From: Candidatus Electronema halotolerans
GTDB taxonomy: Bacteria; Desulfobacterota; Desulfobulbia; Desulfobulbales; Desulfobulbaceae
Reading direction: 5' to 3'
DNA length: 32,000 nucleotides
NCBI GenBank assembly: GCA_942493095.1
Contig: OW818675.1
Coordinates: 390,001 to 422,000 of the forward strand
Shown: positions 4,146 through 31,341 of the stretch, one piece after another
How positions within the stretch are numbered: the first letter of the stretch is position 1
Layout of the letters: every line of letters begins with the position of its first letter
Translations under genes and position numbers: made by a program
Notes under the pieces: model-generated
The model's input: only the letters and a program-made list of their open reading frames with translations
Database searches by the model: none
Told to the model about the DNA's origin: nothing

Positions 4146-6968
4146 TCAGAGCAGCAGCTTATAGACCGCCTGAAGAGATGCGCCGCCGCCACTGTAGCCA
4201 GTGCCGTTTGGCGCATTTTTCACGGTGGGATCGTATTCAGCCCCGGCAGGATCCTTTTCAGTCAGACTGTTCAGGTATTCCTGCAAGTCGCTGTAACCGT
4301 CCTTGTCATAGTCGCTGGTCGCGGTCGCAGTTGCCAGATTGCCGAAATACTTCTCTTCCCAAGCGTCGTCAATGCCGTCGCTGTCGCTGTCAATAATTTC
4401 CTTGAAGAGAGCTGCCACTGTGCAGTTTTCCGTCACTGGGCCGGTGGTGTAGCTGTTGCCATTTAACGTGCCATTGCAGCCGGTCACAGTATCAATGGAA
4501 TAGCCTTCATCCGGGGTGACAGTGAACGAGGTCGTTGTTCCATCTTCTACTGTCTGCGGAGTGGATGGGCTGATGCTGCCGTGCGCACCTGCTGATGGCG
4601 TGACCGTCCACATTGGAATTTCCTTGAAGGCAGCTTCCACCGTGCAATTTTCCGTCACTGGGCCGGTGGTGTAGCTGTTGCCATTTAACGTGCCATTGCA
4701 GCCGGTCACAGTATCAATGGAATAGCCTTCATCCGGGGTGACAGTGAACGAGGTCGTTGTTCCATCTTCTACTGTCTGCGGAGTGGATGGGCTGATGCTG
4801 CCGTGCACACCTGCTGACGGCGTGACTGTCCAAACAGTGGCAGGCAAACTGATTTCTACAGGTCTTTCTTTCCAAGCTGTCCCGTCGCCCAACTGGCCGT
4901 CCTCGTTGCCTCCCCACGCCCAGAGCGTGCCGTCCTGCTTCAGCGCAACCGTATGATAACTTCCAGCAGCCACCGCCTGCCACGTGTCTGTGCCGATCTG
5001 CACCGGACTGTTTTTACTTCCTGTTGTCCCGTCGCCCAACTGGCCGTCCCCGTTGCCTCCCCACGCCCAGAGCGTGCCGTCCTGCTTCAGCGCAACCGTA
5101 TGAGAACTTCCAGCAGCCACCGCCTGCCACGTGTCTGTGCCGATCTGCACCGGACTGTTTTTACTTCCTGTTGTCCCGTCGCCCAACTGGCCGTCCCCGT
5201 TGTCTCCCCACGCCCAGAGCGTGCCGTCCTGCTTCAGCGCAACCGTATGATAACTTCCAGCAGCCACAGCCTGCCACGTGTCTGTGCCGATCTGCACCGG
5301 ACTGTTTTTACTTCCTGTTGTCCCGTCGCCCAACTGGCCGTCCCCGTTGCTTCCCCACGCCCAGAGCGTGCCGTCCTGCTTCAGCGCAACCGTATGATAA
5401 CTTCCAGCAGCCACAGCCTGCCACGTGTCTGTGCCGATCTGCACCGGACTGTTTTTACTTCCTGTTGTCCCGTCGCCCAACTGGCCGTCCCCGTTGCTTC
5501 CCCACGCCCAGAGCGTGCCGTCCTGCTTCAGCGCAACCGTATGATAACTTCCAGCAGCCACAGCCTGCCACGTGTCTGTGCCGATCTGCACCGGACTGGC
5601 TTGATCTGCTGTTGTCCCGTCGCCCAACCGGCCGTCCCAGTTGCCTCCCCACGCCCAGAGCGTGCCGTCCTGCTTCAGCGCAACCGTATGATAACTTCCA
5701 GCAGCCACAGCCTGCCACGTGTCTGTGCCGATCTGCACCGGACTGTTTTTCCCTACTGTTGTCCCGTCGCCCAACTGGCCGTTCCCGTTTCTTCCCCACG
5801 CCCAGAGCGTGCTGTCATCCTTCAGCGCAACCGTATGATAACTTCCAGCAGCCACCGCCTGCCACGTGTCTGTGCCGATCTGCACCGGACTGTTTTTACT
5901 TCCTGTTGTCCCGTCGCCCAACTGGCCGTCCCCGTTGTCTCCCCACGCCCAGAGCGTGCCGTCCTGCTTCAGCGCAACCGTATGAACACTTCCAGCAGCC
6001 ACCGCCTGCCACGTGTCTGTGCCGATCTGCACCGGACTGTTTTTACTTCCTGTTGTCCCGTCGCCCAACTGGCCGAACCAGTTGTATCCCCACGCCCAGA
6101 GCGTGCCGTCCTGCTTCAGCGCAACCGTATGAACACTTCCAGCAGCCACAGCCTGCCACGTGTCTGTGCCGATCTGCACCGGACTGTTTTTACTTGCTCC
6201 TGTCCCGTCGCCCAACTGGCCGAACCAGTTGTTTCCCCACGCCCAGAGCGTGCCGTCCTGCTTCAGCGCAACCGTATGAGCACTTCCAGCAGCCACAGCC
6301 TGCCACGTGTCTGTGCCGATCTGCACCGGACTGGCTTGATCTGCTGTTGTCCCGTCGCCCAACTGGCCGTACCAGTTGTTTCCCCACGCCCAGAGCGTGC
6401 CGTCCTGCTTCAGCGCAACCGTATGAGCACTTCCAGCAGCCACAGCCTGCCACGTGTCTGTGCCGATCTGCACCGGACTGTTTTTACTTCCTGTTGTCCC
6501 GTCGCCCAACTGGCCGTCCCCGTTGTCTCCCCACGCCCAGAGCGTGCCGTCATCCTTCAGCGCAACCGTATAAGAACTTCCAGCAGCCACCGCCTGCCAC
6601 GTGTCTGTGCCGATCTGCACCGGACTGGCTTGATCTGCTTCTGTCCCGTCGCCCAACTGGCCGTCCTCGTTGTCTCCCCACGCCCAGAGCGTGCCGTCCT
6701 GCTTCAGCGCAACCGTATGAAAATCTCCGGCAGCCACCGCCTGCCACGTGTCTGTGCCGATCTGCACCGGACTGTTTTTACTTGCTGTTGTCCCGTCGCC
6801 CAACTGGCCGTGCCCGTTGTCTCCCCACGCCCAGAGCGTGCCGTCATCCTTCAGAACAACCGTATGAGAAGCTCCGGCAGCTACTTCAACAACAGCGGCC
6901 TGCGTTTCCGGTGCCAAGCCAAGCAGCACAAGCAGCCCAGCAAGAAAATACCATCTCCATAGCTTCAT
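4146..6968 (-). CDS. secreted RCC1-repeat (beta-propeller) protein with 14 blades, two InlB-B-repeat-like domains and an acidic Ca-binding-like tail
   Basis: The WAWG-x5-GQLGDGT signature occurs 14 times at 49-aa spacing. The start was moved to the internal ATG at 6968 ([24 protein letters not shown], a signal peptide), which is preceded by GGAGGA. The track ORF begins 13 codons further upstream at 7007. The C-terminal [19 protein letters not shown]...[13 protein letters not shown] resembles thrombospondin type 3 repeats. Confidence 0.9.
4389..4832. repeat. two tandem 222-bp (74-aa) near-identical coding repeats ([64 protein letters not shown])
   Basis: Positions 4429-4580 and 4651-4802 read almost identically at the DNA level, with a 222-bp period. 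Confidence 0.85.
4878..6896. repeat. tandem 147-bp coding repeats (about 13.7 units) that encode the RCC1 blades
   Basis: The string ccgtatgaNaacttccagcagcc recurs every 147 bp (for example near 4951 and 5098). The units are nearly identical in DNA sequence. Confidence 0.9.
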
Positions 6969-7107
6969 AACCTGTCCTCCAGTATAAATTGTTGTCAGGC
7001 CCTTCAAGATTTGTGAGACCTGTTAAATGATCAGTTTCGTTCAATGTTTGTGTCAGGACACTGCATGCCTTCTCTTGCGCCAGCAATCAAACCATTTTTC
7101 TGCGGCT

Positions 7108-7151
7108 GCGACAAGCGAAAAAGCCCCTGCCGCAAGAGGCAGAGGCTTTTC
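7108..7151. repeat. second copy of the 44-bp terminator-like hairpin element (direct repeat of 4041-4084)
   Basis: gcgacaagcGaaaaagcccctgccgcaaGAggcagaggcttttc matches 4041-4084 at 41 of 44 positions in the same orientation. Confidence 0.8.
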
Positions 7152-15606: not shown

Positions 15607-15845
15607 GGTTCTCTCTCCTGCGACCGGATTGCCTTGTGCGGATTTAACGTCTCTCCCAAGCATAGCTTTTTTGACCTGTTGAAGCCAAACAATTTTCATG
15701 GTCTGTTGACTTGCTTGAATTCGCATGCACGTCCTGCTTGCTTTCCAGCCGAAATCTGATTACGTTCTGCTTCAGCGCGTTGTGCGGCAATGCTGGATGC
15801 GCGCTCCTCCTGCTTGCACGTATAACTTGAATCCACAAGAAAAAC

Positions 15846-17476: not shown

Positions 17477-17505
17477 TTGACGAAGGGAGATGCGCTGTTT
17501 AAATT
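17477..17505 (+). promoter_or_regulatory. candidate sigma70-type promoter for the nuclease cassette
   Basis: TTGACG, a 17-nt spacer, then TAAATT. An inverted repeat GATAGACA-N17-TGTCTATC (17508-17540) follows immediately, about 100 nt upstream of the first cassette gene. Confidence 0.3.
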
Positions 17506-17602
17506 GGATAGACAACACGTTGTAATCTTTCTGTCTATCTTGCAACGATTGCATGGTTAATAGAACCATAGAGCTTTTTGTTAGGGCAAGAAGACCATCA
17601 GC

Positions 17603-18145
17603 ATGAGCCATGATTGGAGGAGAAAAAAAGCCAGGTTCAAGGTACCAAGTGATAAAACACTAGGAATTGTCGTTCTTGGGGCGGTAGCAGTCGTAGCCGC
17701 GTTCACAATCCTCGGCAAAAGAATAGCCAAAGAACCTATTAGCGAAAGTTCTCAAATGTCCCATACCATAAGGGTGATCGACGGAGACACTATTGAATTA
17801 TCATCTGAGAAGCTGAGGCTATTCGGGATGGATGCACCAGAAAAAGGCCAACCATGCAAAAGGAACAATGCCCCCTATGATTGCGGCACTGCTTCTAAAG
17901 AGCATTTAGAATTCTTGCTTACAGGAGCAAAAGTTGAATGCACCAAGAAGAAGAAAGATAAATGGGGAAGATATATTGCCTTGTGCTCTGCGGATGGTGA
18001 AGATGTCAGTCGACTAATGGTACGACATGGATGGGCTATAGCTTATAGAGAATATTCAACTTCTTATGTTGAAGATGAGGAATTTGCTAAATCTAATAGG
18101 CTTGGAATGTGGTCAAAGCAATTTGCCGTTCCATCCGAATGGTGA
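17603..18145 (+). CDS. membrane-anchored thermonuclease (staphylococcal nuclease, SNase) family protein
   Basis: IRVIDGDTIEL...LRLFGMDAPEKGQ...DKWGRYIALC...MVRHGWAIAY carries the SNase Ca/catalytic residues (DGDT Asp, R, D-x-x-E, GRY Arg). The N-terminus is RRKKARFK followed by a hydrophobic helix (LGIVVLGAVAVVAAFTIL). Confidence 0.8.
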   Translation: MSHDWRRKKARFKVPSDKTLGIVVLGAVAVVAAFTILGKRIAKEPISESSQMSHTIRVIDGDTIELSSEKLRLFGMDAPEKGQPCKRNNAPYDCGTASKEHLEFLLTGAKVECTKKKKDKWGRYIALCSADGEDVSRLMVRHGWAIAYREYSTSYVEDEEFAKSNRLGMWSKQFAVPSEW

Positions 18146-18168
18146 AAATCTGATAACGGTGACAAATT

Positions 18169-18612
18169 ATGAGCGAAAATAGCGACGATAAGAACCTCAC
18201 TAAACCATATAGCGGTGTTCCTACGCAGATAAACCTTGGCCCAAGCACGTCCATGGATTTGTCGTGGCTCCCGGAAAACGAGCGGAAAGCCCTTTTGATC
18301 GACTATACAAAGGGTATGATGGATATCAGCCAAAAAGCGCAAGAGCTTCACGTTGATGCTGCTGTCTTGAAAAGAACCCTCGATGACCTATCAGATACTA
18401 CTCGGGAAGTCTCTGATAGTGGAAATGTTGTAACGATAACGCACTCTCAAACGACGAAAGTCGGACGTACAGAAATAATGATGGGGAATAGTGAGCAGGC
18501 CCAAAGTGGAAAATTATCGAAAAGCCAAACCGGGGGAAAGGATTGGACTCCCTACTATATATTTGGCGGCATCTTAGCCTTAATTATTATTGCTGCTTTA
18601 ATGAAGGGCTAA
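18169..18612 (+). CDS. hypothetical tail-anchored protein (147 aa)
   Basis: ORF 23 nt after the nuclease gene. It has a single C-terminal hydrophobic helix (YYIFGGILALIIIAALM). No family was recognised. Confidence 0.55.
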   Translation: MSENSDDKNLTKPYSGVPTQINLGPSTSMDLSWLPENERKALLIDYTKGMMDISQKAQELHVDAAVLKRTLDDLSDTTREVSDSGNVVTITHSQTTKVGRTEIMMGNSEQAQSGKLSKSQTGGKDWTPYYIFGGILALIIIAALMKG

Positions 18613-18613
18613 T

Positions 18614-18913
18614 ATGAAGCCTGTCAAGGTGTATGTTTCGGATGACATCGCCGTGGATTCCGCAATCGAGTATTTGCAAAGCCACATCCCGGATGATGTT
18701 AGAAACTCTCAGGAGTACGGCTTCATATTTCCTGAAATAAAATCATGCATCGAGGAGTTTTCACAAAAAGCAAAGAAATTGGCTAACGCCGGAACAACTA
18801 TCCACATAGACAAAGAATATAAAGTTGCCGGATCAAAAATACTCGTCGTCCTTGAATACCCAAGGAAGAAAGGACTCTTTGAAAGAATTGCAGGGATTCT
18901 TAGAAGAGGATAA
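18614..18913 (+). CDS. hypothetical soluble protein (99 aa)
   Basis: ORF starts 1 nt after the previous stop, and AAGGG lies upstream. No family was recognised. Confidence 0.55.
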   Translation: MKPVKVYVSDDIAVDSAIEYLQSHIPDDVRNSQEYGFIFPEIKSCIEEFSQKAKKLANAGTTIHIDKEYKVAGSKILVVLEYPRKKGLFERIAGILRRG

Positions 18914-18915
18914 AC

Positions 18916-19728
18916 ATGAGTCGATATAGAGGAAATCGATATCGATCCTATAATAGAAGATCGGTAGGACACGAAAGGGCTTTAGAACACATCCGCGAAG
19001 CAGAAGCCCTGTCTAGAGAATTAGGCGGCACGGACCAAGATGTTAAGAACTATTTCTTTTCTCTTTCTTCTGCCCAACTGAGAGCGATCTTCGATAAGTA
19101 CGAATCTCAATACGGTAACTCAGCAAGGGAATATGCTGAGAAAACTCTTCCAAGTTGGAAAAGCGGACGAGTTCATATGAGCGGAATGGTTGCGGAAAGA
19201 CTTTTCAACCTACTGCCACCTGTCATGCTAATCGAGGCAAAATTCCAGTTAACTGAAAGTTTGTGGAAACACGTTGGTCCATCTTCTAACAAAAAATTTT
19301 ATGTTGGAGTCGATGTTAATCTTGAAGATATTTCCAGTCGAGTAAAATCACACTTAGAAGAAGTGGTTACGCATTATCAAATACCAAGCTCAATGGAGGC
19401 AAGGTTCAACTGGCTTTCGCAAGGTGATGTCACTGTAAAACAACAACTACTAAATCATTTTCGCCAACAAGAGAAGGTGCTGCTATCAGAAGCACTTCGA
19501 ACTCAATTGCCGGTATTAATAAATCACTTGAATAGCGAAAAAGGAAGTCTTACAACACACGCAGCCCAAGTCCTTAAGGTAGGGAAACATGAGGTTCAAG
19601 TAGTTGTAACTGAGGGCATCAATGGAGTATCCGAAACAGCACCTGTAAGGATTTCTGAATCAAGCGATTACAGTTGGATATGGTGGGTAGTCGGAATTGT
19701 TTTTGTTTTGTGGCTACTGAGCAAGTAG
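18916..19728 (+). CDS. hypothetical tail-anchored protein (270 aa) with an Arg-rich N-terminus
   Basis: ORF starts 2 nt after the previous stop, with AGAGGA upstream. The C-terminal helix is YSWIWWVVGIVFVLWLL. No family was recognised. Confidence 0.55.
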   Translation: MSRYRGNRYRSYNRRSVGHERALEHIREAEALSRELGGTDQDVKNYFFSLSSAQLRAIFDKYESQYGNSAREYAEKTLPSWKSGRVHMSGMVAERLFNLLPPVMLIEAKFQLTESLWKHVGPSSNKKFYVGVDVNLEDISSRVKSHLEEVVTHYQIPSSMEARFNWLSQGDVTVKQQLLNHFRQQEKVLLSEALRTQLPVLINHLNSEKGSLTTHAAQVLKVGKHEVQVVVTEGINGVSETAPVRISESSDYSWIWWVVGIVFVLWLLSK

Positions 19729-19828
19729 CAGTGGATGCGATGAATAGCCCTAACAATCGCATGCACTCGGACAGCAAAAAGCACCGTTCTCGGTTTCACC
19801 TTTAAGCAGTGCTGTAGCTTCTGCCAAC

Positions 19829-20170
19829 ATGGCAGGCTTACCTTTTTTGATTCAGGCAAAGACTCCAGTCTATGCAACTTTAGTTGCATGTATTGTTGGT
19901 TTTATATTTATTTCCATTGGATTGTGCTGGAAACAGGTCATTAAATGGGCGTACAGAGGAACAGCATTACCTGAAAATATAAATCCTAATTTCGCCGAGA
20001 GTATCGACCAACGAATTTGGCGTTTCATTCAAAGATCAGCATACCCAGCGTTTGTTCTTCTCGGAGTTTCTTTGCCAGCAAAATTTTATTTAGACGCACA
20101 TCCTTTTGCAGAAGAAACACGTGGATTCAACTCGCAAGTGCAACTTTTTTTGGTTATCCAAAAAGCATAG
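19829..20170 (+). CDS. possible small membrane protein (113 aa) whose 3' end is supplied by the MITE-like element
   Basis: Two hydrophobic segments are present. No clear RBS was seen. The last 16 codons lie inside the inverted repeat that starts at 20121. Confidence 0.3.
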   Translation: MAGLPFLIQAKTPVYATLVACIVGFIFISIGLCWKQVIKWAYRGTALPENINPNFAESIDQRIWRFIQRSAYPAFVLLGVSLPAKFYLDAHPFAEETRGFNSQVQLFLVIQKA

Positions 20171-20306
20171 GTTGGCTGGCACTTTGAATACTTCATGTAA
20201 ATTTTCAATTATTTTCTCTTAGTTAGCGACAAAAGCAAAGTTGTGACACTCCCGTAACTGCCTTTTCTTGCAACCAAAAAAAGTTGCACTTGGAACTTGA
20301 ATTCAC
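20121..20306. repeat. MITE-like element 1 (186 bp) with 35-bp terminal inverted repeats starting GTGGATTCAA
   Basis: 20121-20155 (gtggattcaactcgcaagtgcaactttttttggtt) pairs with the reverse complement of 20272-20306 at 31 of 35 positions. It sits exactly at the low-GC to high-GC transition. Confidence 0.55.
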
Positions 20307-20323: not shown

Positions 20324-20512
20324 ATGTCGCAAACCAACCTTCTCACCACCTCCACCAATCTGCAAAAGGCTGTTGCGTGGATCAGCGAGACCATGCAGCA
20401 GCACCCGGACAAGCAACGCGCCAAGGTGATGACCGCAGCAGAGCTGCGCTTTGACCTCACCCCTGCGGAATGCGAGTTTCTCCGCCGTCATTTTCACCAG
20501 ACGGACCGCTGA
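20324..20512 (+). CDS. small hypothetical protein (62 aa), translationally coupled to recD2
   Basis: The ATG at 20324 follows GGAG. Its stop TGA (20510-20512) lies 3 nt before the helicase ATG at 20516. GC content is host-like. Confidence 0.45.
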   Translation: MSQTNLLTTSTNLQKAVAWISETMQQHPDKQRAKVMTAAELRFDLTPAECEFLRRHFHQTDR

Positions 20513-20515
20513 CTG

Positions 20516-23038
20516 ATGCTTCCACCTCTGCCCTCTTCGCAGCTCCCGCCGGAAACCCTCAGCGGCGTGATTGAGCGCATCACCTACCACAGCCCGGAAA
20601 ACGGCTGGACAGTGCTGCGGGTCAATCCCTTTGATTCGCGAGGCGGCACGGCCACGGTGATTGTCCATCAGGTTCGAGTCTTTGCCGGGGCAACCATGCA
20701 GTTCAGCGGCGAATGGGTTGTGCATCCCCGCTTTGGCCGCCAGTTCAAGGCCAAGCAGGCTGCGGAGCTGAAACCGGCCTCAGCAGGCGCGCTGGAAAAA
20801 TACCTCGGCTCCGGCCTGATCAAGGGTGTCGGCCCCAAGACGGCCCGCAAGATTGTTGAGCATTTCGGCAAGGATACGTTGGAGGTCTTTGAGGAGCGGA
20901 TTGAGCAACTCACTGACGTGCCCGGCATTGCCGAGAAAAAGCTGAACATGATCAGCACGGCCTGGACAGAGCACCGCGCCATCCGCGACGTGATGCTCTT
21001 CCTTCAGACGCACGGCATCTCCACCCTCTTCGCGGTGCGCATCTACAAGCAGTACGGCGACGAGTCGATTGCCATTGTCTCGGCCAATCCCTACCGCTTG
21101 GCTGAAGATTTCTACGGCATCGGCTTTTTCTCGGCGGACAAAGTGGCTCTGTCCATCGGCTTTGGGCAGGACTCGCCTTTGCGCATCACTGCCGCCATCC
21201 GCCATGTCCTCAATACCAGCCGGGAGCAGGGCCATTGCTGGCTGACCCAGGCCCAGATTGACAAGCAAGTTGCCGAGCTGCTGCAACTCAATCTCTCCGA
21301 CCGCATCGCCCTGTTTCTCCACGAAATGGAGCAGCAGGACAAGCTGCGCGTCCGCCTGCTGGTCACGCGCAAGGGCCGGGAGGCGGAACGCTGCTACTAC
21401 TCGAAGAGCCTGTATTATGACGAGAAGTACGTGGCCGAGCGGCTGCGGGCTATGGTGCGGCCTTTGCCGCATAGTGTTGAACGGATTACCGATTGGCTGC
21501 GGCGTGCTGGAGAAACGACAAGTTTTCAGCTTGCGGCAGAACAGGCCTCGGCAATTTTGACCATAGCCTGCTGTCAGTTCGCCATTCTCACCGGCGGGCC
21601 GGGCTGCGGCAAGACCACGACCACGCGGGTCTTGGTTGCCCTGCTGCGGGCTATGGGCCGCTCAGTGACGCTGGCTGCGCCCACAGGCCGGGCTGCCCAG
21701 CGCATGGGCGAGGTCATCGGCTTGGAGGCCAAAACCATCCACCGTTTGCTGGAGTTTCAGGGCACGGGCTTCAAGCGCAACGAGGACAATCCCCTCAAGA
21801 CGGATGTCTTGATTGTTGATGAATGCTCGATGCTTGACATCAGCCTGACTGCGGCCCTGCTCAAGGCGGTCAGCAAGGACACAGCCTTGGTCTTTATCGG
21901 CGACGCGGATCAGCTCCCCTCGGTCGGGGCAGGCAATGTGCTGCGTGATTTGATCGCGTCGGGCAGCATTCCGGTCTGCACTTTGAACACCATTTTCCGG
22001 CAGGCGAGCCGCTCCAGCATCATCACTTTTGCCCATCAGATCAACTGCGGCGAAACGCCCAAGGTCGGCTCACCCTTCAAGCATCCTGAGCTGTGGAAGA
22101 GCAACGACTGCCTGTTCATTGATTCCGACGAGGCGACCCAAGCCCAGCTCGGTTTCATTGCCAAGGCCCGGCAGCATTTTCAGACGGTCGAGGAGCGCGA
22201 GCAGGCCGGGACTGAAGACCCGTTCAGCTTTGAGGCGGAAACGATCAGCAGTCCGTATCAGCGTTTTGAGCTGCCGGAGCAGTTCCAGCATGTTGACTTG
22301 CAGAGCTTGGCCGTGGCGGAAGGCCCGGCGGCGGAGCTGTCCGCAGTGGTGAAAAAGGTCCATCCGTGGTCATCGCTCTATTACGGCCTGACGGCGGCGG
22401 ACACGGTGCGGCGGCTTTATACGGAATGGATTCCCAAATACTGCGGCAAGGACTGCGAGATTCAGGTGCTTTCGCCCATGAACCGGGGCAGTCTCGGCAC
22501 AGGCGCGCTCAACAAGATGCTGCAAGAGGCGGTCAATCCACCGCAGGAAGGGCGGGCCGAAATCAGGCTCGGCGGCGAGCGGCTTTTCCGCACCGGCGAC
22601 CGGGTCATTCATCGGCGCAACAACTATGATCTCGGCGTGTTCAACGGCGACATCGGCAGGATTATCGAGGTGAACAACGCGGATTTGACCCTGCGCGTCC
22701 GCTTCTTCCCGGATCAGCGTGAGGTCGAGTATCAGCGCGAGCAGCTTACGGAATTGGAACTGGCCTACGCGATCACCATTCACAAGGCGCAGGGTTCAGA
22801 GTTTGAGGCGGTGATTCTGCCGGTGCTGACCCAGCATTTTCGGATGCTCTTCCACAACCTGCTCTACACCGGTCTGACGCGGGCACGGAAGCTGGCGGTG
22901 TTCGTCGGCACGAGGAAGGCGTTGACGATGGCGGTGAAGAATCGGGATACGGGGCTGCGGCAGACGGCGTTAAGGGAGTTGGTGGGAGGAAACGCTGTGG
23001 ATTCAAATTGCATAGGAGTTACGCAGTTGGCTTTATAA
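20516..23038 (+). CDS. recD2: RecD2-type (RecD-like) SF1 ATP-dependent DNA helicase, full length
   Basis: N-terminal LSGVIERITYHSPENGWTVLRV, helix-hairpin-helix GSGLIKGVGPKTARKIV, Walker A LTGGPGCGKTT, DECSML, IGDADQLPSVGAGNVL and TIHKAQGSEF. The last 16 codons (NAVDSNCIGVTQLAL) are encoded by MITE-like element 2. Confidence 0.9.
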   Translation: MLPPLPSSQLPPETLSGVIERITYHSPENGWTVLRVNPFDSRGGTATVIVHQVRVFAGATMQFSGEWVVHPRFGRQFKAKQAAELKPASAGALEKYLGSGLIKGVGPKTARKIVEHFGKDTLEVFEERIEQLTDVPGIAEKKLNMISTAWTEHRAIRDVMLFLQTHGISTLFAVRIYKQYGDESIAIVSANPYRLAEDFYGIGFFSADKVALSIGFGQDSPLRITAAIRHVLNTSREQGHCWLTQAQIDKQVAELLQLNLSDRIALFLHEMEQQDKLRVRLLVTRKGREAERCYYSKSLYYDEKYVAERLRAMVRPLPHSVERITDWLRRAGETTSFQLAAEQASAILTIACCQFAILTGGPGCGKTTTTRVLVALLRAMGRSVTLAAPTGRAAQRMGEVIGLEAKTIHRLLEFQGTGFKRNEDNPLKTDVLIVDECSMLDISLTAALLKAVSKDTALVFIGDADQLPSVGAGNVLRDLIASGSIPVCTLNTIFRQASRSSIITFAHQINCGETPKVGSPFKHPELWKSNDCLFIDSDEATQAQLGFIAKARQHFQTVEEREQAGTEDPFSFEAETISSPYQRFELPEQFQHVDLQSLAVAEGPAAELSAVVKKVHPWSSLYYGLTAADTVRRLYTEWIPKYCGKDCEIQVLSPMNRGSLGTGALNKMLQEAVNPPQEGRAEIRLGGERLFRTGDRVIHRRNNYDLGVFNGDIGRIIEVNNADLTLRVRFFPDQREVEYQREQLTELELAYAITIHKAQGSEFEAVILPVLTQHFRMLFHNLLYTGLTRARKLAVFVGTRKALTMAVKNRDTGLRQTALRELVGGNAVDSNCIGVTQLAL

Positions 23039-23151
23039 CTCGTTGATTTTGTTCAACTGGCAGTTTATGCGGCCAAGGGTCAACTTGCTGTAATAATTGA
23101 ACTCCTATTTTCAACTGCGTAAGTCCTATTGCATTTACAACTTGAATCCAC
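22997..23151. repeat. MITE-like element 2 (155 bp) with imperfect 33/40-nt terminal inverted repeats starting GTGGATTCAA
   Basis: Left arm is gtggattcaaattgcataggagttacgcagttg. The reverse complement of the right arm is gtggattcaagttgtaaatgcaataggacttacgcagttg. The arms share a 10-nt terminal block and an 11-nt internal block. The element is followed by TTTTTT. Confidence 0.5.
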
Positions 23152-23158
23152 GAATTTT

Positions 23159-24457
23159 TTAGAGGCTGTAAGTTAACGACAGCACGCTATTGAAACTATC
23201 CTCAGAAAAGCTCGCGCCAATATCCACCTTGATATCTTTGTTCCAGTTTACACCACCACCTAATGTATAATACATTTGATCAGAATCAATTGCCTGAAAA
23301 CCATCATGATCCGGGATGCGGAAGAGACCAGCCCGAATTTGACAATTCAAGCTGTTAGAAACAATAAAGGTCTTTTCCGTGCCGAAACGGAGAATTACAC
23401 CGTCGTCTATTTCCTCATCCAGCGTATTGCCACTCGTGCTGGCATCTGCCAACGCGGAATATCCCACCCAATCTGCCTGCGCGGTTAGCAGCCAGTTTGG
23501 AACAGGATACCACGCCACACCAACACTCCAGATGTCTGGAGTGTCAAAAATGGCCTGCAAGTTTTCGATGGCATCATCGCAGCTACTCAGGGAGCATGTG
23601 GTTTCTACACTGCTGTAATCAATGCTGAATGAACTGCCTTTGCGGTATGAAAGAGCGGCAGAAATATCAGAAGCCGGTTTGAACAGCATTCCTAAGCTGA
23701 AGCTAAAGTCATTGTCGTTACCGTCAATTATGCCGCCATAGCTGATCGAGCTGTCATGAACACTGCCGGTATAGGTGTTCGTCGTCCACATTTCACGCAA
23801 ATTAGTGTTCAGTGTTTCCAAACTGACCGCAGCACCGAAAGAAAACAGCTCGCTATAGTTGAAAGCAGCAGCTATTCCATAACTCCTCTTTCGATATTCC
23901 TCAATGTTTTTTTCAGAAATATTCTCTTGCAGAAGATTTAAGGTGCTATCGAATACCGGCTCCGGCCCGGAGTTTTGATTGTCGCTGCCAGTGAAAGCCG
24001 AACTGCGATAATAGACAGAGGCGGTTAGCTTTCCGGGAACGACTTGCATCGCCGCACCAGCAAAAGAAAGATCGGCAATGCTGTCATCAAAGGTTCTGAA
24101 CTCATCCAGATCAGGTCCCAAACCGATATTGTTGACTGAAGCATAGGTGTCCATGTAATCTTTTTCATAGGACGAATAGCTAATATCGACTGCAAGCTGC
24201 ATATCTCGCAATGCAGACAGGCCTGCCGGATTCAGAGCCGAAGCCCGCACGTCATCAGCAACAGCTAACGCTGCTCCACCCATGGCGAGATATTTGCCAC
24301 CTGTAACTTCAGAAGGTTCTAAGTCAAAAGGCAGATGGAGTGCCCAATAGCCATTGCTGCTGAGACCATGAGGGTTGCCCCATGCCACACTGCTCAGACA
24401 AAATGAAGCTGTAATGGCGCTCAACAGAATCATTTTCACCTTTACACATGGAGACAT
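23159..24457 (-). CDS. outer-membrane beta-barrel protein, possibly FadL/TodX-like
   Basis: Signal peptide (ILLSAITASFCLSSVAWG). The block YLAMGGAALAVADDVRASALNPAGLSAL resembles the N-terminal FadL-family motif. Alternating beta-strand patterns run to the C-terminus. GGGAGG lies 7-8 nt before the ATG. Confidence 0.55.
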   Translation of the reverse strand: MSPCVKVKMILLSAITASFCLSSVAWGNPHGLSSNGYWALHLPFDLEPSEVTGGKYLAMGGAALAVADDVRASALNPAGLSALRDMQLAVDISYSSYEKDYMDTYASVNNIGLGPDLDEFRTFDDSIADLSFAGAAMQVVPGKLTASVYYRSSAFTGSDNQNSGPEPVFDSTLNLLQENISEKNIEEYRKRSYGIAAAFNYSELFSFGAAVSLETLNTNLREMWTTNTYTGSVHDSSISYGGIIDGNDNDFSFSLGMLFKPASDISAALSYRKGSSFSIDYSSVETTCSLSSCDDAIENLQAIFDTPDIWSVGVAWYPVPNWLLTAQADWVGYSALADASTSGNTLDEEIDDGVILRFGTEKTFIVSNSLNCQIRAGLFRIPDHDGFQAIDSDQMYYTLGGGVNWNKDIKVDIGASFSEDSFNSVLSLTYSL

Positions 24458-24466
24458 CTTTCTTTC

Positions 24467-24507
24467 CTCCCTTTTTATAAAAAGGGAGAGACAAAATTAT
24501 CTCTCCC
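24467..24507 (-). promoter_or_regulatory. overlapping hairpins at the OMP ribosome-binding site (terminator-like stem plus a 22-bp perfect palindrome)
   Basis: On the minus strand GGGAGAGA-uaauuuug-UCUCUCCC-UUUUUA forms a terminator-like stem. The 22-bp palindrome CTCCCTTTTTATAAAAAGGGAG (24467-24488) shares the CUCCC arm with that stem and includes the SD purines. Confidence 0.35.
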
Positions 24508-24671
24508 CGGGCTGATATAACGGTTGCACGAAAAATGGCAATCAGTTTGATATGGCGACCATCATATAAACTCATTTGCTTTATATAATTAAACTCCTTA
24601 ACAAAGCAGAGATGTCTGATAGCCGTTCACCACATAACCGCTATAGTTCCGACATAGATCACGCCTTGGAA

Positions 24672-25256
24672 TTATTTCCGATCATACGCACAGCATCCAT
24701 TCTTGCTGGCCGGATAGAAAGATTCAAAGTTTTGACCTTTGGCGTACTGCGAACAGCGTTGGCCACTTTTGCTGACAAAGGTGGATTCACAGCTCATCCG
24801 GTAGGACTCGCCGCAGACAATATTTGGCCTGTCGGTCATTTTTTCAAATGATGCCGTGCTACCTATCGCCTCGGACACTGCACAGAAAATTTCTGCTGAC
24901 CATTCGCCGGACGCATTACCTATCATGCTGCACTCGTCAGTACATTTATTAACGATGTCATCTAACGAGCTGTTCAAGCCTGCAATGTATCCGTTACCAA
25001 AGTCCACTGCCATCTTCCCTGTAAACCTTCTGTTTTTTATATCACGAACAACTCGATCTACAGCATCGCCGACAATCTGCACCAAGTTGTCCGCTCTGTG
25101 GCAATCTTGGCCGAGGTTATTCCATGCAGCGGAAACAAGTTTAGATGAAGTCCGCTTCGCCATGTTGTAGAAACCGCTCTGGGCTGCGGCATTTTTCGCA
25201 TACCCATTCAACAACAGGAGAGATGATGCGAATAGAACTAACATTAGTTTTTTCAT
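24672..25256 (-). CDS. secreted Cys-rich hypothetical protein (194 aa, 9 Cys)
   Basis: Signal peptide MKKLMLVLFASSLLLLNGYAKNAAA and an RBS-like AGAGGAAAAG upstream. Low GC. No family was recognised. Confidence 0.55.
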   Translation of the reverse strand: MKKLMLVLFASSLLLLNGYAKNAAAQSGFYNMAKRTSSKLVSAAWNNLGQDCHRADNLVQIVGDAVDRVVRDIKNRRFTGKMAVDFGNGYIAGLNSSLDDIVNKCTDECSMIGNASGEWSAEIFCAVSEAIGSTASFEKMTDRPNIVCGESYRMSCESTFVSKSGQRCSQYAKGQNFESFYPASKNGCCAYDRK

Positions 25257-25299
25257 ACGCTTTTCCTCTTTTTTGGTGATTGATGGTCTCTATTTGCCT

Positions 25300-25857
25300 T
25301 TACTCAGCACAGATTTTGCTGAATTTCGATACGGGAAAATTATAACTGAAGGCCGTGGAAAAGCTTCCCCGAACCTTGCTTTTGCAATCAATGCTGCATA
25401 CTTGGTATGGGTATGAAATATTTAAAACCATATCAACGATTTGAGTGATAGTAATATTCCACGACCCTAACTGAACTTCGCATTCATGAATGAACGGCAC
25501 AATGGTGCTGACGATAAAACTCTCCTCCATGCAGCTAACGCTGTTTTCTTGGTTGATACGGTCAATTTCGTCATAGTAAGAATGGATCAGCGTTGGCAGG
25601 AAATCGTTCAGGATGACATCGCTCGAATAACTGCGCTGTATCGAACGTAGCGAGCGGGTCAGAATCTTTGGCATGTGCTCGTCGCGAATGGTTTTCCACG
25701 GGATACCATTCGCTTTCAAGTTTTTGTAGATAGTACGCACCGATGCTTTGGCGAGCTTATCAGCCACTTCGCGAGCATCTCCTGTTTGTGAATACGCCAC
25801 GCTAGGCACAACGAGAAACAAGCCAAACAGCAGAATAATTAGTTCTTTCTTATTCAT
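25300..25857 (-). CDS. secreted hypothetical protein (185 aa, 5 Cys)
   Basis: Signal peptide MNKKELIILLFGLFLVVPSVAYS and GGAGGA upstream of the ATG. Low GC. No family was recognised. Confidence 0.55.
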   Translation of the reverse strand: MNKKELIILLFGLFLVVPSVAYSQTGDAREVADKLAKASVRTIYKNLKANGIPWKTIRDEHMPKILTRSLRSIQRSYSSDVILNDFLPTLIHSYYDEIDRINQENSVSCMEESFIVSTIVPFIHECEVQLGSWNITITQIVDMVLNISYPYQVCSIDCKSKVRGSFSTAFSYNFPVSKFSKICAE

Positions 25858-25944
25858 TTTATATCCTCCATTGAATTATTAAATGCCCAGCCGTAAGCGG
25901 TAGGGTATCAATTTCTCGGCTTCCTATCTCTGATCTCAAAAATT

Positions 25945-25973
25945 ATTAAACTGAAAAAATTTCCATCTGTCAA
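25945..25973 (-). promoter_or_regulatory. near-consensus sigma70 promoter for the secreted-protein/OMP operon
   Basis: The minus strand reads TTGACA, a 17-nt spacer, then TTTAAT, about 90 nt upstream of the ATG at 25857. Confidence 0.45.
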
Positions 25974-26343
25974 ATTAAATTTTACGCAGCGGAACCGCCA
26001 CCGTGATCGTATAGCGGTTTCAGGTTGTATGGTTATCAGAAAAAGATTAAACTTGACTTGTCTGTTTTTTCCATTTTTTCACACACGGAGGTCTGCCATG
26101 ATTTATTCTATTGATTTCAGAAAGAAAGTCTTGTCTGTTTATGAAAAACAGAAATCATTGAGAAGAACTGCAGATTTGCTTGACGTTTCCTATAAATTTG
26201 TTCAAAGTCTTGTAAAAAGATGGAAGACTGAGGGGACGATTGAGCCGAAGCCTCATAAAGGCGGAAATCCTCCGAAAATCAAGGAAGTTCATATTCCTTT
26301 TCTGACCAGCATGATTGATGACGAGAACGATCTTACGCTTGAA

Positions 26344-27648
26344 GGGAACCTCGAAAAATTCGAGATAAAGCTTTTTCAGCTTATCAATAGTGTCTTTGAC
26401 AGTTGAAAACTTCAAATACATAAATTGTTATTTCCTGTTTTTTATTTATTTTGAGCAAACTTCTGTTGAAATATGTTCCTGAATGCGTTTCTTTTTTTTA
26501 AATCTTAAATTTTATTAAGAGTTCCGTACCTGTCAATATTGAACGTCAAGTTTCTCAAGCCTATTTTCGCAGCAGCGCGAATGAAACCTGTTCCTCGGAG
26601 AATCATATTGCCAGCACGTTGCGCCTGGATGCCGAAGACGTGTTCAATCCGGGAGCGAATTTTTGATCTTGTCCGATTTCCCTGCTTCTCCCATTCGGTC
26701 AGTTTCCGGCTTCGTGTTCCTTTGCGGTTCAGATGCTCTCTGTATCCATTCTCGTTCAACCAGTTGAGCTTTTTTTCAGATCTGTATGCCGAATCCGCAT
26801 AGATATCCCGACTGGTGTTGTCAGGGTCAAGCAGCTCCTCAAAAATATTGCTGTCATGAACCTCGGCACTGGTCACCGCATATTTTCGGATGAATTTATG
26901 CTTCACATCAACAGATATATGATTTTTATAACCAAAAAAGCTTCTGCCGTTCTTTTTGGTCCAACGGGCATCAGTATCCTTCTGCGCCTGCTTATTTTCA
27001 CTCCATCCTTCAGGCTGTTCACCATTCTTGATCTGCTTGTTTTCCTTGCGGCTGTTACGCTGGATCGGGGCGTTGACTATGGAAGCGTCGACTATCTGCC
27101 CTTTTCTGGCTTGATATCCATTTTCATCAAGAAATTTGTCAAAAACAGAAAACAGTTCCTCGATTTTTCCTGCTTTGGTCAAAGTTTCACGAAAAAGCCA
27201 TATCGTTGTCGCATCTGGAACTTTGTCAGCCGCCCGAAGTCCAAGGAATCTGGAAAACGAATATCTGTCAAGAATTTGATATTCCATCCCTTTATCAGAA
27301 AGATTGTATAATGATTGCAAAATTAAAATTTTGAACATCATGACTGAATCATAACCTTTAGCTCCAGCATTTGATTTCACAGGCTTTCTTTTTGCTTCTT
27401 CAAGAATTGGCCGAAATATTTCCCAGTCAATAGCCTTGTTGATCTTAACTAAAGGATCACCTGCTTTGTCAATTCGGGAAAGACGAATATAAAAATCAAA
27501 AAATCCAAGTTGGTTCATCTGTGCATCTCCGGCAGCATGAGTTGAATTGATGCCGAAATTATAACATAATAGACTGAAATTTCAATATTAAAATAAAAAA
27601 TAACAAAACAAATGCAGCAGAATGGATGTTGTATTTTTCGAGGAACCC
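26344..27648 (-). mobile_element. IS5-family insertion sequence (1305 bp) nested in the IS630 transposase gene
   Basis: Inverted repeats GGGAACCTCGAAAAAT (26344-26359) and ATTTTTCGAGGAACCC (27633-27648) match at 14 of 16 positions. They are flanked by a TGAA direct repeat (26340-26343 and 27649-27652). Removing the element restores the IS630 reading frame. Confidence 0.85.
26505..27518 (-). CDS. IS5-family DDE transposase (337 aa)
   Basis: DRYSFSRFLGL...VPDATTIWLFRE, IVDASIVNAP, FGYKNHISVD, EVHDS, IYADSAYRS, SRIEHVFG and the LRNLTFN tail match the InsH/IS5 pattern. Confidence 0.9.
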   Translation of the reverse strand: MNQLGFFDFYIRLSRIDKAGDPLVKINKAIDWEIFRPILEEAKRKPVKSNAGAKGYDSVMMFKILILQSLYNLSDKGMEYQILDRYSFSRFLGLRAADKVPDATTIWLFRETLTKAGKIEELFSVFDKFLDENGYQARKGQIVDASIVNAPIQRNSRKENKQIKNGEQPEGWSENKQAQKDTDARWTKKNGRSFFGYKNHISVDVKHKFIRKYAVTSAEVHDSNIFEELLDPDNTSRDIYADSAYRSEKKLNWLNENGYREHLNRKGTRSRKLTEWEKQGNRTRSKIRSRIEHVFGIQAQRAGNMILRGTGFIRAAAKIGLRNLTFNIDRYGTLNKI

Positions 27649-28377
27649 TGAAGAGATGTGTGATCGCTTATACGAGAAATTCAATTTAAAAATAGCACCT
27701 TCCACGCTGTGCGAAACTCTCGCCAGACTGAAAATCAGCCGGAAAAAAAAACTTTCCGCGATCCGGCGGCGTATAAAGAAGAAAATATAGCAAAGACAGT
27801 TAATTACCTTGCAGGCCTGATCGAGGCTGACAAAAAGAATTTCATCTTTATTGATGAGACAGGATGCTGTTTGAACATGTCGAGAAAATTTGCAAGATCA
27901 AGAAAAGGAACAAGAGCTTTTTCAAAAAGACCTTCAGGTAAAGGGAAAAGAATAAGCATGATAGGAGCTGTAAAGTTTGGAAAAATATTGAAGTGCATGA
28001 AATTTAAAGGAACCATGACAGGAGATGTCTTTTATTTCTATATAAAAAATTATCTTTTGAAATATCTTGACAGCAGTAAGACAGTCGTTCTTGACAATGC
28101 CAGTCCTCATAAAAACAAAGAAGCTCTCGCTTTGATCAGAAGTACAGGAGCGAAGATCATTTTCCTCCCTCCTTATCGTCCTGAACTGAACCCTATTGAA
28201 TACTGCTGGTCAGTAATGAAAAACACTATAAGAAAATTGAAGCCGAGAACAGAGCGTGAGCTGATGGAAGCTTATGATATATCTCTGAAAACGGTTAAGT
28301 CAAAATCAATCAAATCGTTTTTCCGTCATTGCTGGGTTTGATATCTGTTCAATACGAAACCGCTATACGTCAGGTTT

Positions 28378-30387
28378 GTGTCTTGGCCGGGCCGGGGCCA
28401 CCTCTCCACCCTGTTCGCGGTGCGCATCTACAAGCAGTATGGCGATGAATCCATTGCCCTTGTCTCGGCCAATCCCTATCGTCTGGCCGAAGATTTCTAC
28501 GGCATCGGCTTTTTCTCGGCAGACAAGGTGGCCCTGTCCATTGGTTTCAGCCAAGATTCGTCTCTGCGCATCACTGCCGCCATCCGCCACGTCCTCAACG
28601 CCAGCCGGGAACAGGGGCATTGCTGGCTGACCCAGGCCCAGATTGACAAGCAAGTATCCGAGCTGCTGCAACTGAGTCTTTCTGACCGCATCGCCCTGTT
28701 TCTCCACGAAATGGAGCAGCAGGACAAGCTGCGTGTCCGCCTGCTGGTCACGCGCAAGGGCCGGGAGGCGGAACGCTGCTACTACTCGAAGAGCCTGTAT
28801 TATGACGAGAAGTACGTGGCCGAGCGGCTGCGGGCTATGGTGCGGCCTTTGCCGCATAGTGTTGAACGGATTACCGATTGGCTGCGGCGTGCTGGAGAAA
28901 CGACAAGTTTTCAGCTTGCGGCAGAACAGGCCTCGGCAATTTTGACCATAGCCTGCTGTCAGTTCGCCATTCTCACCGGCGGGCCGGGCTGCGGCAAGAC
29001 CACGACCACGCGGGTCTTGGTCGCCCTGCTGCGGGCTATGGGCCGCTCAGTGACGCTGGCTGCGCCCACAGGCCGGGCCGCGCAGCGCATGGGCGAGGTC
29101 ATCGGCTTGGAGGCCAAGACCATCCACCGTTTGCTGGAGTTCCAAGGCACAGGCTTCAAGCGCAACGAGGACAATCCCCTCAAGACGGATGTCCTGATTG
29201 TTGATGAATGCTCAATGCTTGACATCAGCCTGACAGCGGCCCTGCTCAAGGCGGTCAGCAAGGAAACAGCCTTGGTCTTTATCGGCGATGCGGATCAGCT
29301 CCCTTCGGTCGGGGCAGGCAATGTGCTGCGTGATCTGATCGCATCCGGCAGCATTCCAGTCTGCACTTTGAACACCATTTTCCGCCAGGCGAGCCGCTCC
29401 AGCATCATCACCTTTGCCCACCAGATCAATCAAGGCGAAACGCCCAAGGTCGGCTCGCCGTTCAAGCATCCTGAGCTGTGGAAGAGCAACGACTGCCTGT
29501 TCATTGATTCCGACGAGGCGACGCAGGCCCAGCTCGGTTTCATCGCCAAGGCCCGGCAGCATTTTCAGACGGTCGAAGAGCGCGAGCAGGCCGGGACAGA
29601 AGACCCGTTCAGCTTTGAGGCTGAAACGATTAGCAGTCCGTATCAGCGTTTTGAGCTGCCAGAGCAGTTTCAGCATGTCAATCTGCACAGCTTGGCGGTT
29701 GCCGAAGGCCCGGTAGAAGAGCTGGCCGCAGTGGTGAAAAAGGTGCATCCTTGGTCATCGCTCTACTACGGCCTGACAGCGGCGGACACGGTGCGGCGGC
29801 TTTATACGGAATGGATTCCCAAATATTGCGGCAAGGACTGCGAAATTCAGGTGCTCTCGCCCATGAACCGGGGCAGTCTCGGCACAGGCGCGCTCAACAA
29901 GATGCTGCAAGAGGCGGTCAATCCACCGCAGGAAGGGCGGGCCGAAATCAGGCTCGGCGGCGAGCGGCTTTTCCGCACCGGCGACCGGGTCATTCATCGG
30001 CGCAACAACTATGATCTCGGCGTGTTCAACGGCGACATCGGCAGGATTATCGAGGTGAACAACGCGGATTTGACCCTGCGCGTCCGCTTCTTCCCGGATC
30101 AGCGTGAGGTCGAGTATCAGCGCGAGCAGCTTACGGAATTGGAACTGGCCTACGCGATCACCATTCACAAGGCGCAGGGTTCAGAGTTTGAGGCGGTGAT
30201 TCTGCCGGTGCTGACCCAGCATTTTCGGATGCTCTTCCACAACCTGCTCTACACCGGTCTGACGCGGGCACGGAAGCTGGCGGTGTTCGTCGGCACGAGG
30301 AAGGCGTTGACGATGGCGGTGAAGAATCGGGATACGGGGCTGCGGCAGACGGCGTTAAGGGACTTGGTGGGCGGAGAGGATTGCTGA
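28378..30387 (+). pseudogene. recD2: 5'-truncated second copy of the RecD2-type helicase (lacks about 167 N-terminal codons; helicase core intact)
   Basis: Colinear with 21018-22990 at a constant 7,385-bp offset, with no indels. Homology begins about 34 bp from the IS630 right end. The frame is open from a GTG at 28378, and all helicase motifs are retained. Confidence 0.7.
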
Positions 30388-30405
30388 GAAATATTACAGT
30401 CGCAA

Positions 30406-30796
30406 TCACCAGATGCGCTGCAAGCCAGCATACTCATCAAAGGCTTGATCTCTGCTCAGAAGCGGCATGTTCTCCGCCAAACTTTGCGCGATGAGCAGGC
30501 GGTCAAACGGGTCTTTGTGATGAAACGGCATTGATCTGACAAAGTCCAGATGCTTCGGCTGCACAGGCAGCAGTTTCATCGCATTACCCCTGACATGCGT
30601 CTCAACCAAGTCCGGGAAGGAGAAGTTCAGCTTCAGTTTGCCCATGCTGGCCTTGATGGACATTTCCCAGAGGCTGGGCGATGCTGATCAGCCGTTCGTT
30701 GCGGATATCTTCGATGAGCTGCCGCGCCGGGCCGCTCAGATTCGGATTGCCGCCGATGAACCAGAGAAAAGTGTGCGTGTCCAGCAGAAGCTTTAT
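30406..30796 (-). pseudogene. vapC: PIN-domain VapC-type toxin gene, frameshifted and lacking an ATG start
   Basis: The C-terminal frame gives SLWEMSIKASMGKLKL...HHKDPFDRLLIAQSLAENMPLLSRDQAFDEY. The N-terminal part (I)KLLLDTHTFLWFIGGNPNLSGPARQLIEDIRNERLISIA is in another frame. The span is 391 nt, one more than a multiple of 3, and the shift lies near 30673-30680. The first codon is ATA. Confidence 0.6.
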
Positions 30797-31017
30797 GGCA
30801 TGTAGTCCTCGAAATCATCAAGTGGCGCATCAAAATCATCCGCCATTTCAATCAGTCCAGCGGCACTGCCGAATTTCGGGCGCGGCAGGACAGGAAACGG
30901 CACGAGTTTGAATCCTGAGCCGTCATCCTTTGTGATGATGACTTCTTCGCCAGCGGCTGCCATTACAATCAGCTTGGCAAGCATGGTCTCCGCTGCTTTC
31001 AACGCGACTTGGGGCAT
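30793..31017 (-). CDS. type II antitoxin, Phd/YefM-like (74 aa)
   Basis: GEEVIITKDDGSGFKLVPF and the C-terminal RPKFGSAAGLIEMADDFDAPLDDFEDYM resemble antitoxins paired with PIN toxins. The stop overlaps the vapC 5' end. Confidence 0.55.
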   Translation of the reverse strand: MPQVALKAAETMLAKLIVMAAAGEEVIITKDDGSGFKLVPFPVLPRPKFGSAAGLIEMADDFDAPLDDFEDYMP

Positions 31018-31143
31018 GTCAGCCTCCTGCTGTTGACAGCAACCAATGTTGTTTTTTGCTCCTGCTTGAATTTTCAGGAGAACGCTTTCAGCATAGCATG
31101 TTCAGGCGGGCAATGCAACGAGCTGAACGACTGGCCTTTCTCT

Positions 31144-31203
31144 GTCGGCACGAGGAAAGCCTTGGCAATGGCGGTCAAGAATCTAATCACGATCTGGCGG
31201 CAG
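31144..31203 (+). pseudogene. short relic of a recD2 3' end (third copy)
   Basis: 31144-31182 (gtcggcacgaggaaagccttggcaatggcggtcaagaat) matches 30289-30327 and 22904-22942 at 34 of 39 positions. It translates to VGTRKALAMAVKN, against VGTRKALTMAVKN in the helicases. Confidence 0.55.
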
Positions 31204-31341
31204 TGCAGGTTCACGCCCGAATCGAGTCATCCCCAGCCGATGGACCCCATGTTGTCTTAGCAGGCAATTCAATGAAATGATTCACTTTGCGAAGCAATTT
31301 GTCTCTGCAATGTATCATCCGGGGCTTGACACCAGCCCGTC

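Follow-up and report, generated by a model that had tools for sequence, protein, structure and literature searches.

How does a chromosome come to carry, 7.4 kb apart, two copies of one helicase gene that are identical in some blocks and as much as 10% divergent in others? The question is raised by the recD2 locus of Candidatus Electronema halotolerans, a cable bacterium in the family Desulfobulbaceae, whose circular, closed 3.2-Mb genome was assembled from metagenomic Nanopore reads with Flye, polished by Racon, Medaka, and Illumina, and reported with a single nucleotide polymorphism (SNP) rate of <0.1%. Here, we examined 32,000 nucleotides of this genome (NCBI GenBank assembly GCA_942493095.1, contig OW818675.1, positions 390,001 to 422,000 of the forward strand; “the window”), in which a full-length recD2 (copy A) is followed in the same orientation by a truncated one (copy B), and compared the locus with relatives taken from genome and metagenome collections. 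We think it likely, if some way short of certain, that an allele from another Electronema lineage was imported beside the resident recD2 and that gene conversion between the two copies followed.

Two unequal copies of recD2

Copy A has Pfam matches to OB_YrrC (residues 13-87), HHH_5 (102-146), HHH_RecD2 (152-241), AAA_30/AAA_19, SH3_13, and UvrD_C_2, and it matches the structure of Deinococcus radiodurans RecD2 (PDB 3e1s; E=5e-76). Copy B is without codons 1 to 167 and, with them, the OB fold, the HhH domain, and the start of the HHH_RecD2 domain; its HHH_RecD2 match begins at profile position 16, the OB_YrrC and HhH matches are absent, and the motor set (AAA_30/AAA_19, SH3_13, UvrD_C_2) is present in both copies. 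An open frame of 669 amino acids (aa) runs through copy B from a GTG start (28378-30387; annotated as CAK8712659.1), and no promoter-like site was detected upstream of it on the + strand. Homology between the copies stops in the region of the stop codon. The final 14 codons and the stop of copy A fall within an inverted-repeat element, and its protein ends in ...LVGGNAVDSNCIGVTQLAL in place of the usual ...LVGGE; copy B retains the native C-terminus (the usual ...LVGGEDC end) and the native 3′ flank. Judged by sequence, copy A is the predicted working, full-length recD2 and copy B a 5′-truncated remnant that starts at codon 168.

The original prediction described a repeat at a constant offset of 7,385 bp with no indels, and the computed alignment agrees: 21018-22990 pairs with 28403-30375 throughout, with mismatches at 91 of 1,973 bp (95.4% identity; 4.6% divergence). 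Self-identity at this offset is 70-100% over ~21016-22996 and at background (~25%) on either side. The differences are as unevenly spread as had been claimed, and the manual counts for successive blocks (34, 0, about 54, and 0) were right to within one, the computed series being 34, 0, 55, 0, and then 2 (Table 1). Most changes are also third-position and synonymous, as first described. By codon position, the differences number 13, 4, and 74, with 14 amino-acid differences among 657 codons; over the whole repeat, the synonymous rate (dS) is 0.174, the nonsynonymous rate (dN) is 0.011, and dN/dS is 0.063. Block by block, dS is 0.46, 0, 0.27, and 0.008; in the divergent blocks, where the copies are 6.6-10% apart, dN/dS is 0.05-0.06.

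Table 1. Features of the recD2 region, in window coordinates; the last row refers to contig CDPDQU010000029.1 of assembly GCA_976560315.1 (L018).
Feature	Position	Strand	Description
Inverted-repeat element 1	20121..20306		186 bp, directly upstream of the conserved recD2 locus; termini carry GTGGATTCAAGTTG
Conserved 62-aa ORF	20324..20512	+	Directly 5′ of recD2; part of the ancestral locus
recD2 copy A	20516..23038	+	Full-length superfamily 1B (SF1B) helicase RecD2, 840 aa, CAK8712624.1
Repeat copy 1	21018..22990	+	1973 bp; codons 168-825 of copy A
Mismatch block 1	21018-21349		34 mismatches
Identical tract 1	21350-21636 (28735-29021 in copy B)	+	287 bp, 0 differences; putative gene-conversion tract
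Mismatch block 2	21637-22471		55 mismatches
Identical tract 2	22472-22977 (29857-30362 in copy B)	+	506 bp, 0 differences; putative gene-conversion tract
Repeat end after tract 2	22978 and 22987		2 mismatches, at these positions
Inverted-repeat element 2	22997..23151		155 bp; starts exactly at the end of A/B homology
Three-gene cluster	23159..25857	-	185-aa protein (25300-25857), 194-aa protein (24672-25256), FadL/OmpP1-type outer-membrane protein (23159-24457)
IS630-family element	26010..28367	+	HTH part 26029-26406, DDE_3 part 27709-28341; TA/TA flanks
IS5-like element	26343..27649	-	Transposase 26505-27518 (DDE_Tnp_1 + DUF772); within the IS630 transposase gene
Non-recD2 stretch	28368..28402		~35 bp; separates the IS630 end from the beginning of homology
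Repeat copy 2 (recD2 copy B)	28403..30375	+	tblastn covers residues 168-825
Putative toxin-antitoxin pair	30406..31017	-	PIN-domain protein 30406-30663, DUF2281 protein 30793-31017; lies after copy B and before the third remnant
Third, eroded recD2 3′ remnant	31144..31183	+	40 nt, 87.5% to A/B; encodes VGTRKALAMAVKN
recD2 copies of L018	584-3064, 6189-7510, 12767-13064		~60% GC within accessory DNA of 26-45% GC

The identical tracts

When the 74 third-position differences were redistributed over the 657 third positions 200,000 times, the largest run free of differences was 136 third positions; the longest observed run is 168. The second-longest observed run, of 95 third positions, was likewise reached in 0 of the 200,000 shuffles. 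Sequence constraint does not account for the tracts, because relatives vary at both: the region of tract 1 is the most variable part of recD2 among orthologues, which are 7-30% divergent from A/B there, and across tract 2 the orthologues of relatives are 7-17% divergent. A control is available in an independent assembly (L018; GCA_976560315.1, contig CDPDQU010000029.1) in which recD2 has the same architecture. There, the full copy and a truncated copy differ at 106 of 1,325 sites, the differences are spread evenly, and the longest identical run between copies 1 and 2 is 59 bp; the tracts in E. halotolerans are therefore a secondary feature and not a property of the recD2 gene.

The tracts are best read as the outcome of nonreciprocal homologous recombination (gene conversion) between the two direct copies, which would have erased about 60 expected differences, either at the time of insertion or afterwards. 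The earlier suggestion that conversion followed divergence is thus strengthened on three counts: the tracts exceed chance length, they lie in regions that vary among orthologues, and L018 is without them.

Positions 21418-21617 (RecD2 residues ~300-367), inside tract 1, are hypervariable among relatives and fall into two deeply divergent allele classes. There, L019 (a recD2 on an unrelated metagenome contig), L001 (E. aureum), L002, and L003 (Electronema sp. JM) are ~24-35% from the class that holds A/B and L018, and L018 is 7% away.

It is unlikely that the tracts were inherited, that is, that the segments were common to both alleles before these came together, recD2 alleles being recombinant mosaics. 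Mosaicism of recD2 in Electronema is indeed strong across the clade, the L019 allele being 2-4% from copy B at 21018-21217 and 26-35% from it at 21418-21617. However, zero differences over 793 bp would demand very recent exchange in both lineages, and every sampled allele is at least 7% away from the tract sequences. Two copies lying 7.4 kb apart on one chromosome are, besides, obvious recombination partners, and the L018 copies, which are of similar origin, carry no such tracts.

An insertion into a single ancestral locus

Relatives, including E. aureum, UBA5173, and Electronema spp. JM, KV, and PJ, have a single recD2. The 5′ flank of copy A, with its 62-aa open reading frame (ORF), is conserved in L001, L002, L004 (Electronema sp. 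JC), L012, and L033, and the 3′ flank of copy B (30376-30430, then 30762-31037) is collinear with the Electronema sp. JM locus. The outer flanks of the two copies thus match one recD2 locus, and 7,385 bp, consisting of one recD2 3′ portion and 5.4 kb of passenger DNA, were therefore added inside a single ancestral locus. The passenger comprises a three-gene cluster that encodes an FadL-type outer-membrane protein and two nested insertion sequences (IS). With the IS630-family element taken out, positions 25858-26009 and 28368-28402 form a ~185-bp region upstream of the FadL cluster that abuts recD2 codon 168, a joint that appears to be illegitimate. Compared with the intergenic regions of relatives, the junction DNA around 28368-28402 showed no homology. 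The recD2 repeat first described is real, but copy B is truncated and does not amount to a second gene, and the event was an insertion into this locus rather than simple duplication.

The allelic origins of the copies were assessed by a bootstrap of nearest neighbors. At 21018-21217, copy B is ~3% (2-4%) from the L019 recD2 and 12.5% from copy A; L019 was the nearest neighbor of B in all of 500 bootstraps, and B was that of A in 2 of the 500. In the remainder of the repeat, the two copies are mutual nearest neighbors, 6-7% apart, and any donor was therefore a close relative. An attempt to identify it ended with L018, L019, and L033 as the closest alleles, which are still 7-12% away. Together with the dN/dS of 0.05-0.06, the placement of B beside L019 at 21018-21217 supports the proposal that the copies diverged under purifying selection in different lineages. 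A dN/dS this low also makes it unlikely that truncated B drifted as a pseudogene for much of the divergence.

Duplication in place, followed by divergence in which gene conversion kept parts identical, we regard as quite unlikely. It would fit the direct, indel-free repeats on either side of an insert, an arrangement also seen in insertions with long target duplication, and the fact that A and B are nearest neighbors over most of their length. Yet a dS of 0.27-0.46 at such low dN/dS would need long purifying selection on a copy without its N-terminus and without a detected promoter, and the L018 remnants show the same low dN/dS. Nor would duplication in place be expected to leave B 3% from a foreign allele and 12.5% from A at 21018-21217.

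That copy B is itself functional, as an N-terminally truncated helicase or as a silent cassette kept for recombining with the expressed copy, seems decidedly improbable. Its frame of 669 codons is uninterrupted, holds all motor domains, and, relative to the crystallized, N-terminally truncated construct of D. radiodurans RecD2, begins only ~18 residues further in, and the truncated L018 copies are likewise open frames with low dN/dS. But the frame opens with a weak GTG that lies within junction DNA and has no promoter-like site upstream, the truncation points differ (codon 168 here, ~387 and at most 487 in L018), and older remnants have eroded to 40-150 nt. As a cassette, moreover, it would supply no protein diversity, the variation being almost all synonymous.

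An assembly or polishing artifact as the source of the duplication or of the perfect tract identity is most improbable: the genome is metagenome assembled from Nanopore reads polished with long and short reads, and a 2.4-kb nested IS lies between the copies, but the contig is circular with the low SNP rate given above, both junctions are unique sequence, L018 shows the same architecture independently, and polishing would not clear differences in sharply bounded blocks yet leave 91 elsewhere.

A proposed history of the locus

Under the import and conversion history that we favor, copies A and B would be two alleles that arose in different Electronema lineages. One end of the DNA brought in from a relative would have entered by homologous recombination with the resident recD2, and the other end would have been joined illegitimately at codon 168, through either one-sided homology-facilitated integration or the single-crossover (Campbell-type) integration of a circle with a recD2 fragment on it. 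The product would be a complete gene, passenger DNA, and a headless remnant, which may be the resident's or the donor's. RecA-type nonreciprocal recombination, during the event or afterwards, may have transferred two stretches, of no less than 287 bp and 506 bp, from one copy to the other, and the IS630 and IS5 elements would have inserted later. The same process, repeated downstream of recD2 in the genus, would yield truncated copies of varied length separated by accessory genes.

Several points weigh against this history. Among the sequences compared, there was no same-species donor or empty-site genome that would show which copy (A or B) came in, where the crossover lay, and what kind of illegitimate joint was made. 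The passenger FadL cluster is a conserved cable-bacterial set and the sole copy in the genome; if it arrived with the incoming allele, a resident copy must have been lost, and if it is native, an extra rearrangement is needed. The guanine-plus-cytosine (GC) content of the cluster (45.5%) also fits poorly with cotransfer from one donor. The case for xenology rests mainly on one 200-bp segment, the dN/dS, and the L018 parallel, because A and B are each other's nearest neighbors elsewhere. Finally, it is conceivable that both alleles had the identical tracts in common before they met.

Recurrence of recD2 remnants in Electronema

The L018 contig carries one full and two truncated recD2 copies in direct orientation. 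The second starts near codon 387; the sampled part of the third begins near codon 487 (its start is at most 487) and runs off the fetched stretch. The copies are open frames with a dS of 0.33-0.52 and a dN/dS of 0.05-0.06, and they are separated by AT-rich accessory genes for a caspase-like peptidase, UPF0175/DUF3368 and MNT/HepT toxin-antitoxin pairs, and an M36 peptidase. Electronema sp. JC (L004) has a full recD2 and, 5 kb downstream, a 150-bp remnant that lies beyond a 1,395-aa ORF and a toxin-antitoxin pair. Many draft contigs end within or just after recD2, which is consistent with repeats there but only suggestive of them.

E. halotolerans itself has a third, eroded remnant downstream of copy B (Table 1), recognized by blastn (E=9e-7) and tblastn (E=0.009) and 95.6% identical to L018 recD2 over 45 nt. 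Nearby, positions 31212-31264 match L018 8365-8417 (88.7%) and may be an old recD2-downstream flank.

The recurrent pattern points to a series of insertions downstream of recD2, anchored by homology at one end and joined illegitimately at the other. We regard the recurrent arrays of recD2 remnants in cable bacteria as a modest new observation, and the mechanism here as a clear example of known processes, namely, allelic import, partial duplication, and gene conversion.

A more elaborate possibility, which we consider a long shot, is that the region downstream of recD2 serves in Electronema as a cassette-exchange site that needs no recombinase. Genes between a full and a truncated recD2 would loop out as circles by RecA acting on the direct repeats, and the circles would reenter the recD2 of another genome through one homologous crossover. 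A further layer and a truncated copy would result from each round, which would explain both the open, low-dN/dS copies and the mosaic alleles.

Comparison with known systems

Insertion with long target duplication has been described for restriction-modification units in Helicobacter, Haemophilus, Neisseria, and others, with repeats of 46 to ~420 bp in the genomes surveyed (Furuta et al. 2010, PMC2853133). Of the phenomena described, it is the closest to the recD2 case. Both involve kilobases of passenger DNA between long direct repeats, a target that is single copy in relatives, and no integrase or transposase that could be held responsible. The recD2 repeat, however, is 1,973 bp, its passenger is not a restriction-modification unit, and there are arrays of several truncated copies. 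Nor are the recD2 copies near-identical, and their 4.6% divergence, with its synonymous bias, indicates that one came from another lineage and was not copied at insertion.

In homology-facilitated illegitimate recombination, known from naturally competent bacteria and Escherichia coli conjugation, one end of the incoming DNA is joined by homology and the other illegitimately (PMC3240628). As a candidate process, it would explain how a foreign allele and its passenger came to be joined at the arbitrary codon 168 with no recombinase involved.

Gene conversion between diverged repeats within a genome is familiar from tuf and ribosomal RNA paralogues and from the transfer of silent pilS sequence to expressed pilE in Neisseria. 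The recD2 tracts resemble such conversion in being sharply bounded, a few hundred base pairs long, and set in diverged direct copies, and, as with pilS/pilE, one partner is truncated and without sign of expression. In recD2, by contrast, the differences are almost all synonymous (dN/dS 0.06), so that no protein variation results, and there is no sign that conversion is programmed or adaptive.

The gnd gene next to the E. coli O-antigen cluster is a core gene made mosaic by hitchhiking with a variable locus. Like gnd, recD2 borders a highly variable region and is a patchwork of segments whose divergence differs among lineages; unlike gnd, it has also been left behind as truncated duplicates. 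Integrative islands at transfer RNA (tRNA) genes target the 3′ end of the gene, carry a replacement end, and form tandem arrays, and here, too, direct 3′ gene fragments separate successive blocks of accessory DNA. In contrast to those islands, the recD2 arrays have no integrase and no tRNA gene, and the fragments start at different points (codon 168, ~387, and at most 487), which leaves no fixed attachment site.

DNA between and around the copies

No integrase or recombinase was found in the window or in the passenger DNA of L018 or L004, and a search for tRNA genes found none. A site-specific island was rejected on these grounds, there being neither integrase nor tRNA nor a fixed attachment point, with truncation points that vary. 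No close viral relative was found, viral contigs holding only relatives at 44% identity.

The FadL-type protein of the three-gene cluster matches Pfam Toluene_X, and homologues of the cluster occur almost entirely in Electronema/Electrothrix and related Desulfobulbaceae. In L100, L101, L102, and L106, the set sits after an aldolase gene, with homology confirmed for L100 and L102. A second copy was not detected in the E. halotolerans genome, and a search for the cluster beside recD2 in any other genome found none. Its GC content of 45.5% compares with ~57% in the surrounding genome, 60% in both recD2 copies, and 48-53% for the cluster in relatives. Our initial view of the insert as a foreign low-GC island was revised, the cluster being a conserved cable-bacterial set and the sole genome copy, though anomalous in GC.

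The IS630-family element has Pfam matches to HTH_28/29 and DDE_3, and inverted repeats were found both for it and for the IS5-like element. This copy is dead, because the IS5-like element interrupts its transposase gene, and its TA flanks on both sides mark it as a later, simple insertion. As the cause of the truncation of copy B, it was rejected, since 35 bp separate it from the joint and it is bounded by a TA duplication of its own. IS-mediated duplication, whether by a composite transposon or at an IS junction, was set aside on the same 35-bp distance and because no IS was found at the L018 junctions. A solo sequence at 24614-24645, within the FadL cluster and between two of its genes, resembles the IS630 terminal repeat.

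The homology of relatives to the window starts just past inverted-repeat element 1, at ~20332. The 62-aa ORF has homologues with 74-88% amino-acid identity in L001, L002, L004, L012, L020-22, L028, and L033; ORFs of 62 and 66 aa occupy the same place upstream of recD2 in L107 and the P0002 contig, and a Pfam search with the 62-aa ORF gave no match. An element related to inverted-repeat element 2 lies just 3′ of recD2 in E. aureum, in the opposite orientation (L001 4974-5091 versus 23128-23012; 84%).

With up to 2 mismatches allowed, the 14-nt motif GTGGATTCAAGTTG occurs 6 times in the window, versus 0.3 expected: at 20121-20134 and 22997-23010 on the + strand and at 2091-2104, 15823-15836, 20293-20306, and 23138-23151 on the - strand. 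Four of the copies are the ends of the two inverted-repeat elements, which bracket recD2 copy A, and three lie 9-18 nt upstream of unrelated start codons (2123, 15846, 20324). The motif may be the end of a miniature inverted-repeat transposable element (MITE) or a regulatory site. A composite transposon formed by the two elements seems doubtful: there are no target duplications, and the motif also occurs singly elsewhere.

Upstream of the locus, between rmlC and inverted-repeat element 1, a block of 42% GC (17500-20120) not shared with the loci of relatives contains a homologue of staphylococcal nuclease (17603-18145) and four ORFs that match no family; this block, too, is probably an accessory insertion. 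Farther away, on the - strand, a 953-aa ORF (4146-7007) has 14 RCC1 repeats, which are encoded by 147-bp units arranged head to tail, with 91-94% DNA identity among them (4878-6884). The same gene contains a 216-bp direct repeat (4395-4610 and 4617-4832; 96%) and is bracketed by a 44-bp direct repeat (4041-4084 and 7108-7151; 93%).

Implications

The two recD2 copies have practical consequences. It had been suggested that the repeats promote deletion or inversion of the DNA between them; deletion holds, but inversion does not, since repeats in direct orientation lead to deletion or amplification. Loop deletion between these 2-kb repeats would remove the only FadL cluster of the genome. The second “exodeoxyribonuclease V alpha subunit” in the annotation, CAK8712659.1, is to be read as a truncated remnant and not as a second helicase gene, and recD2, being mosaic and partly converted, cannot safely serve as a phylogenetic marker in this clade. 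Direct repeats of 2 kb also break short-read assemblies.

To our knowledge, the routes by which cable bacteria exchange genes have not been characterized. The arrays of truncated recD2 in several Electronema genomes mark a hotspot of gene gain, and we read them as the footprint of transfer driven by homologous recombination in an uncultured, multicellular bacterium.

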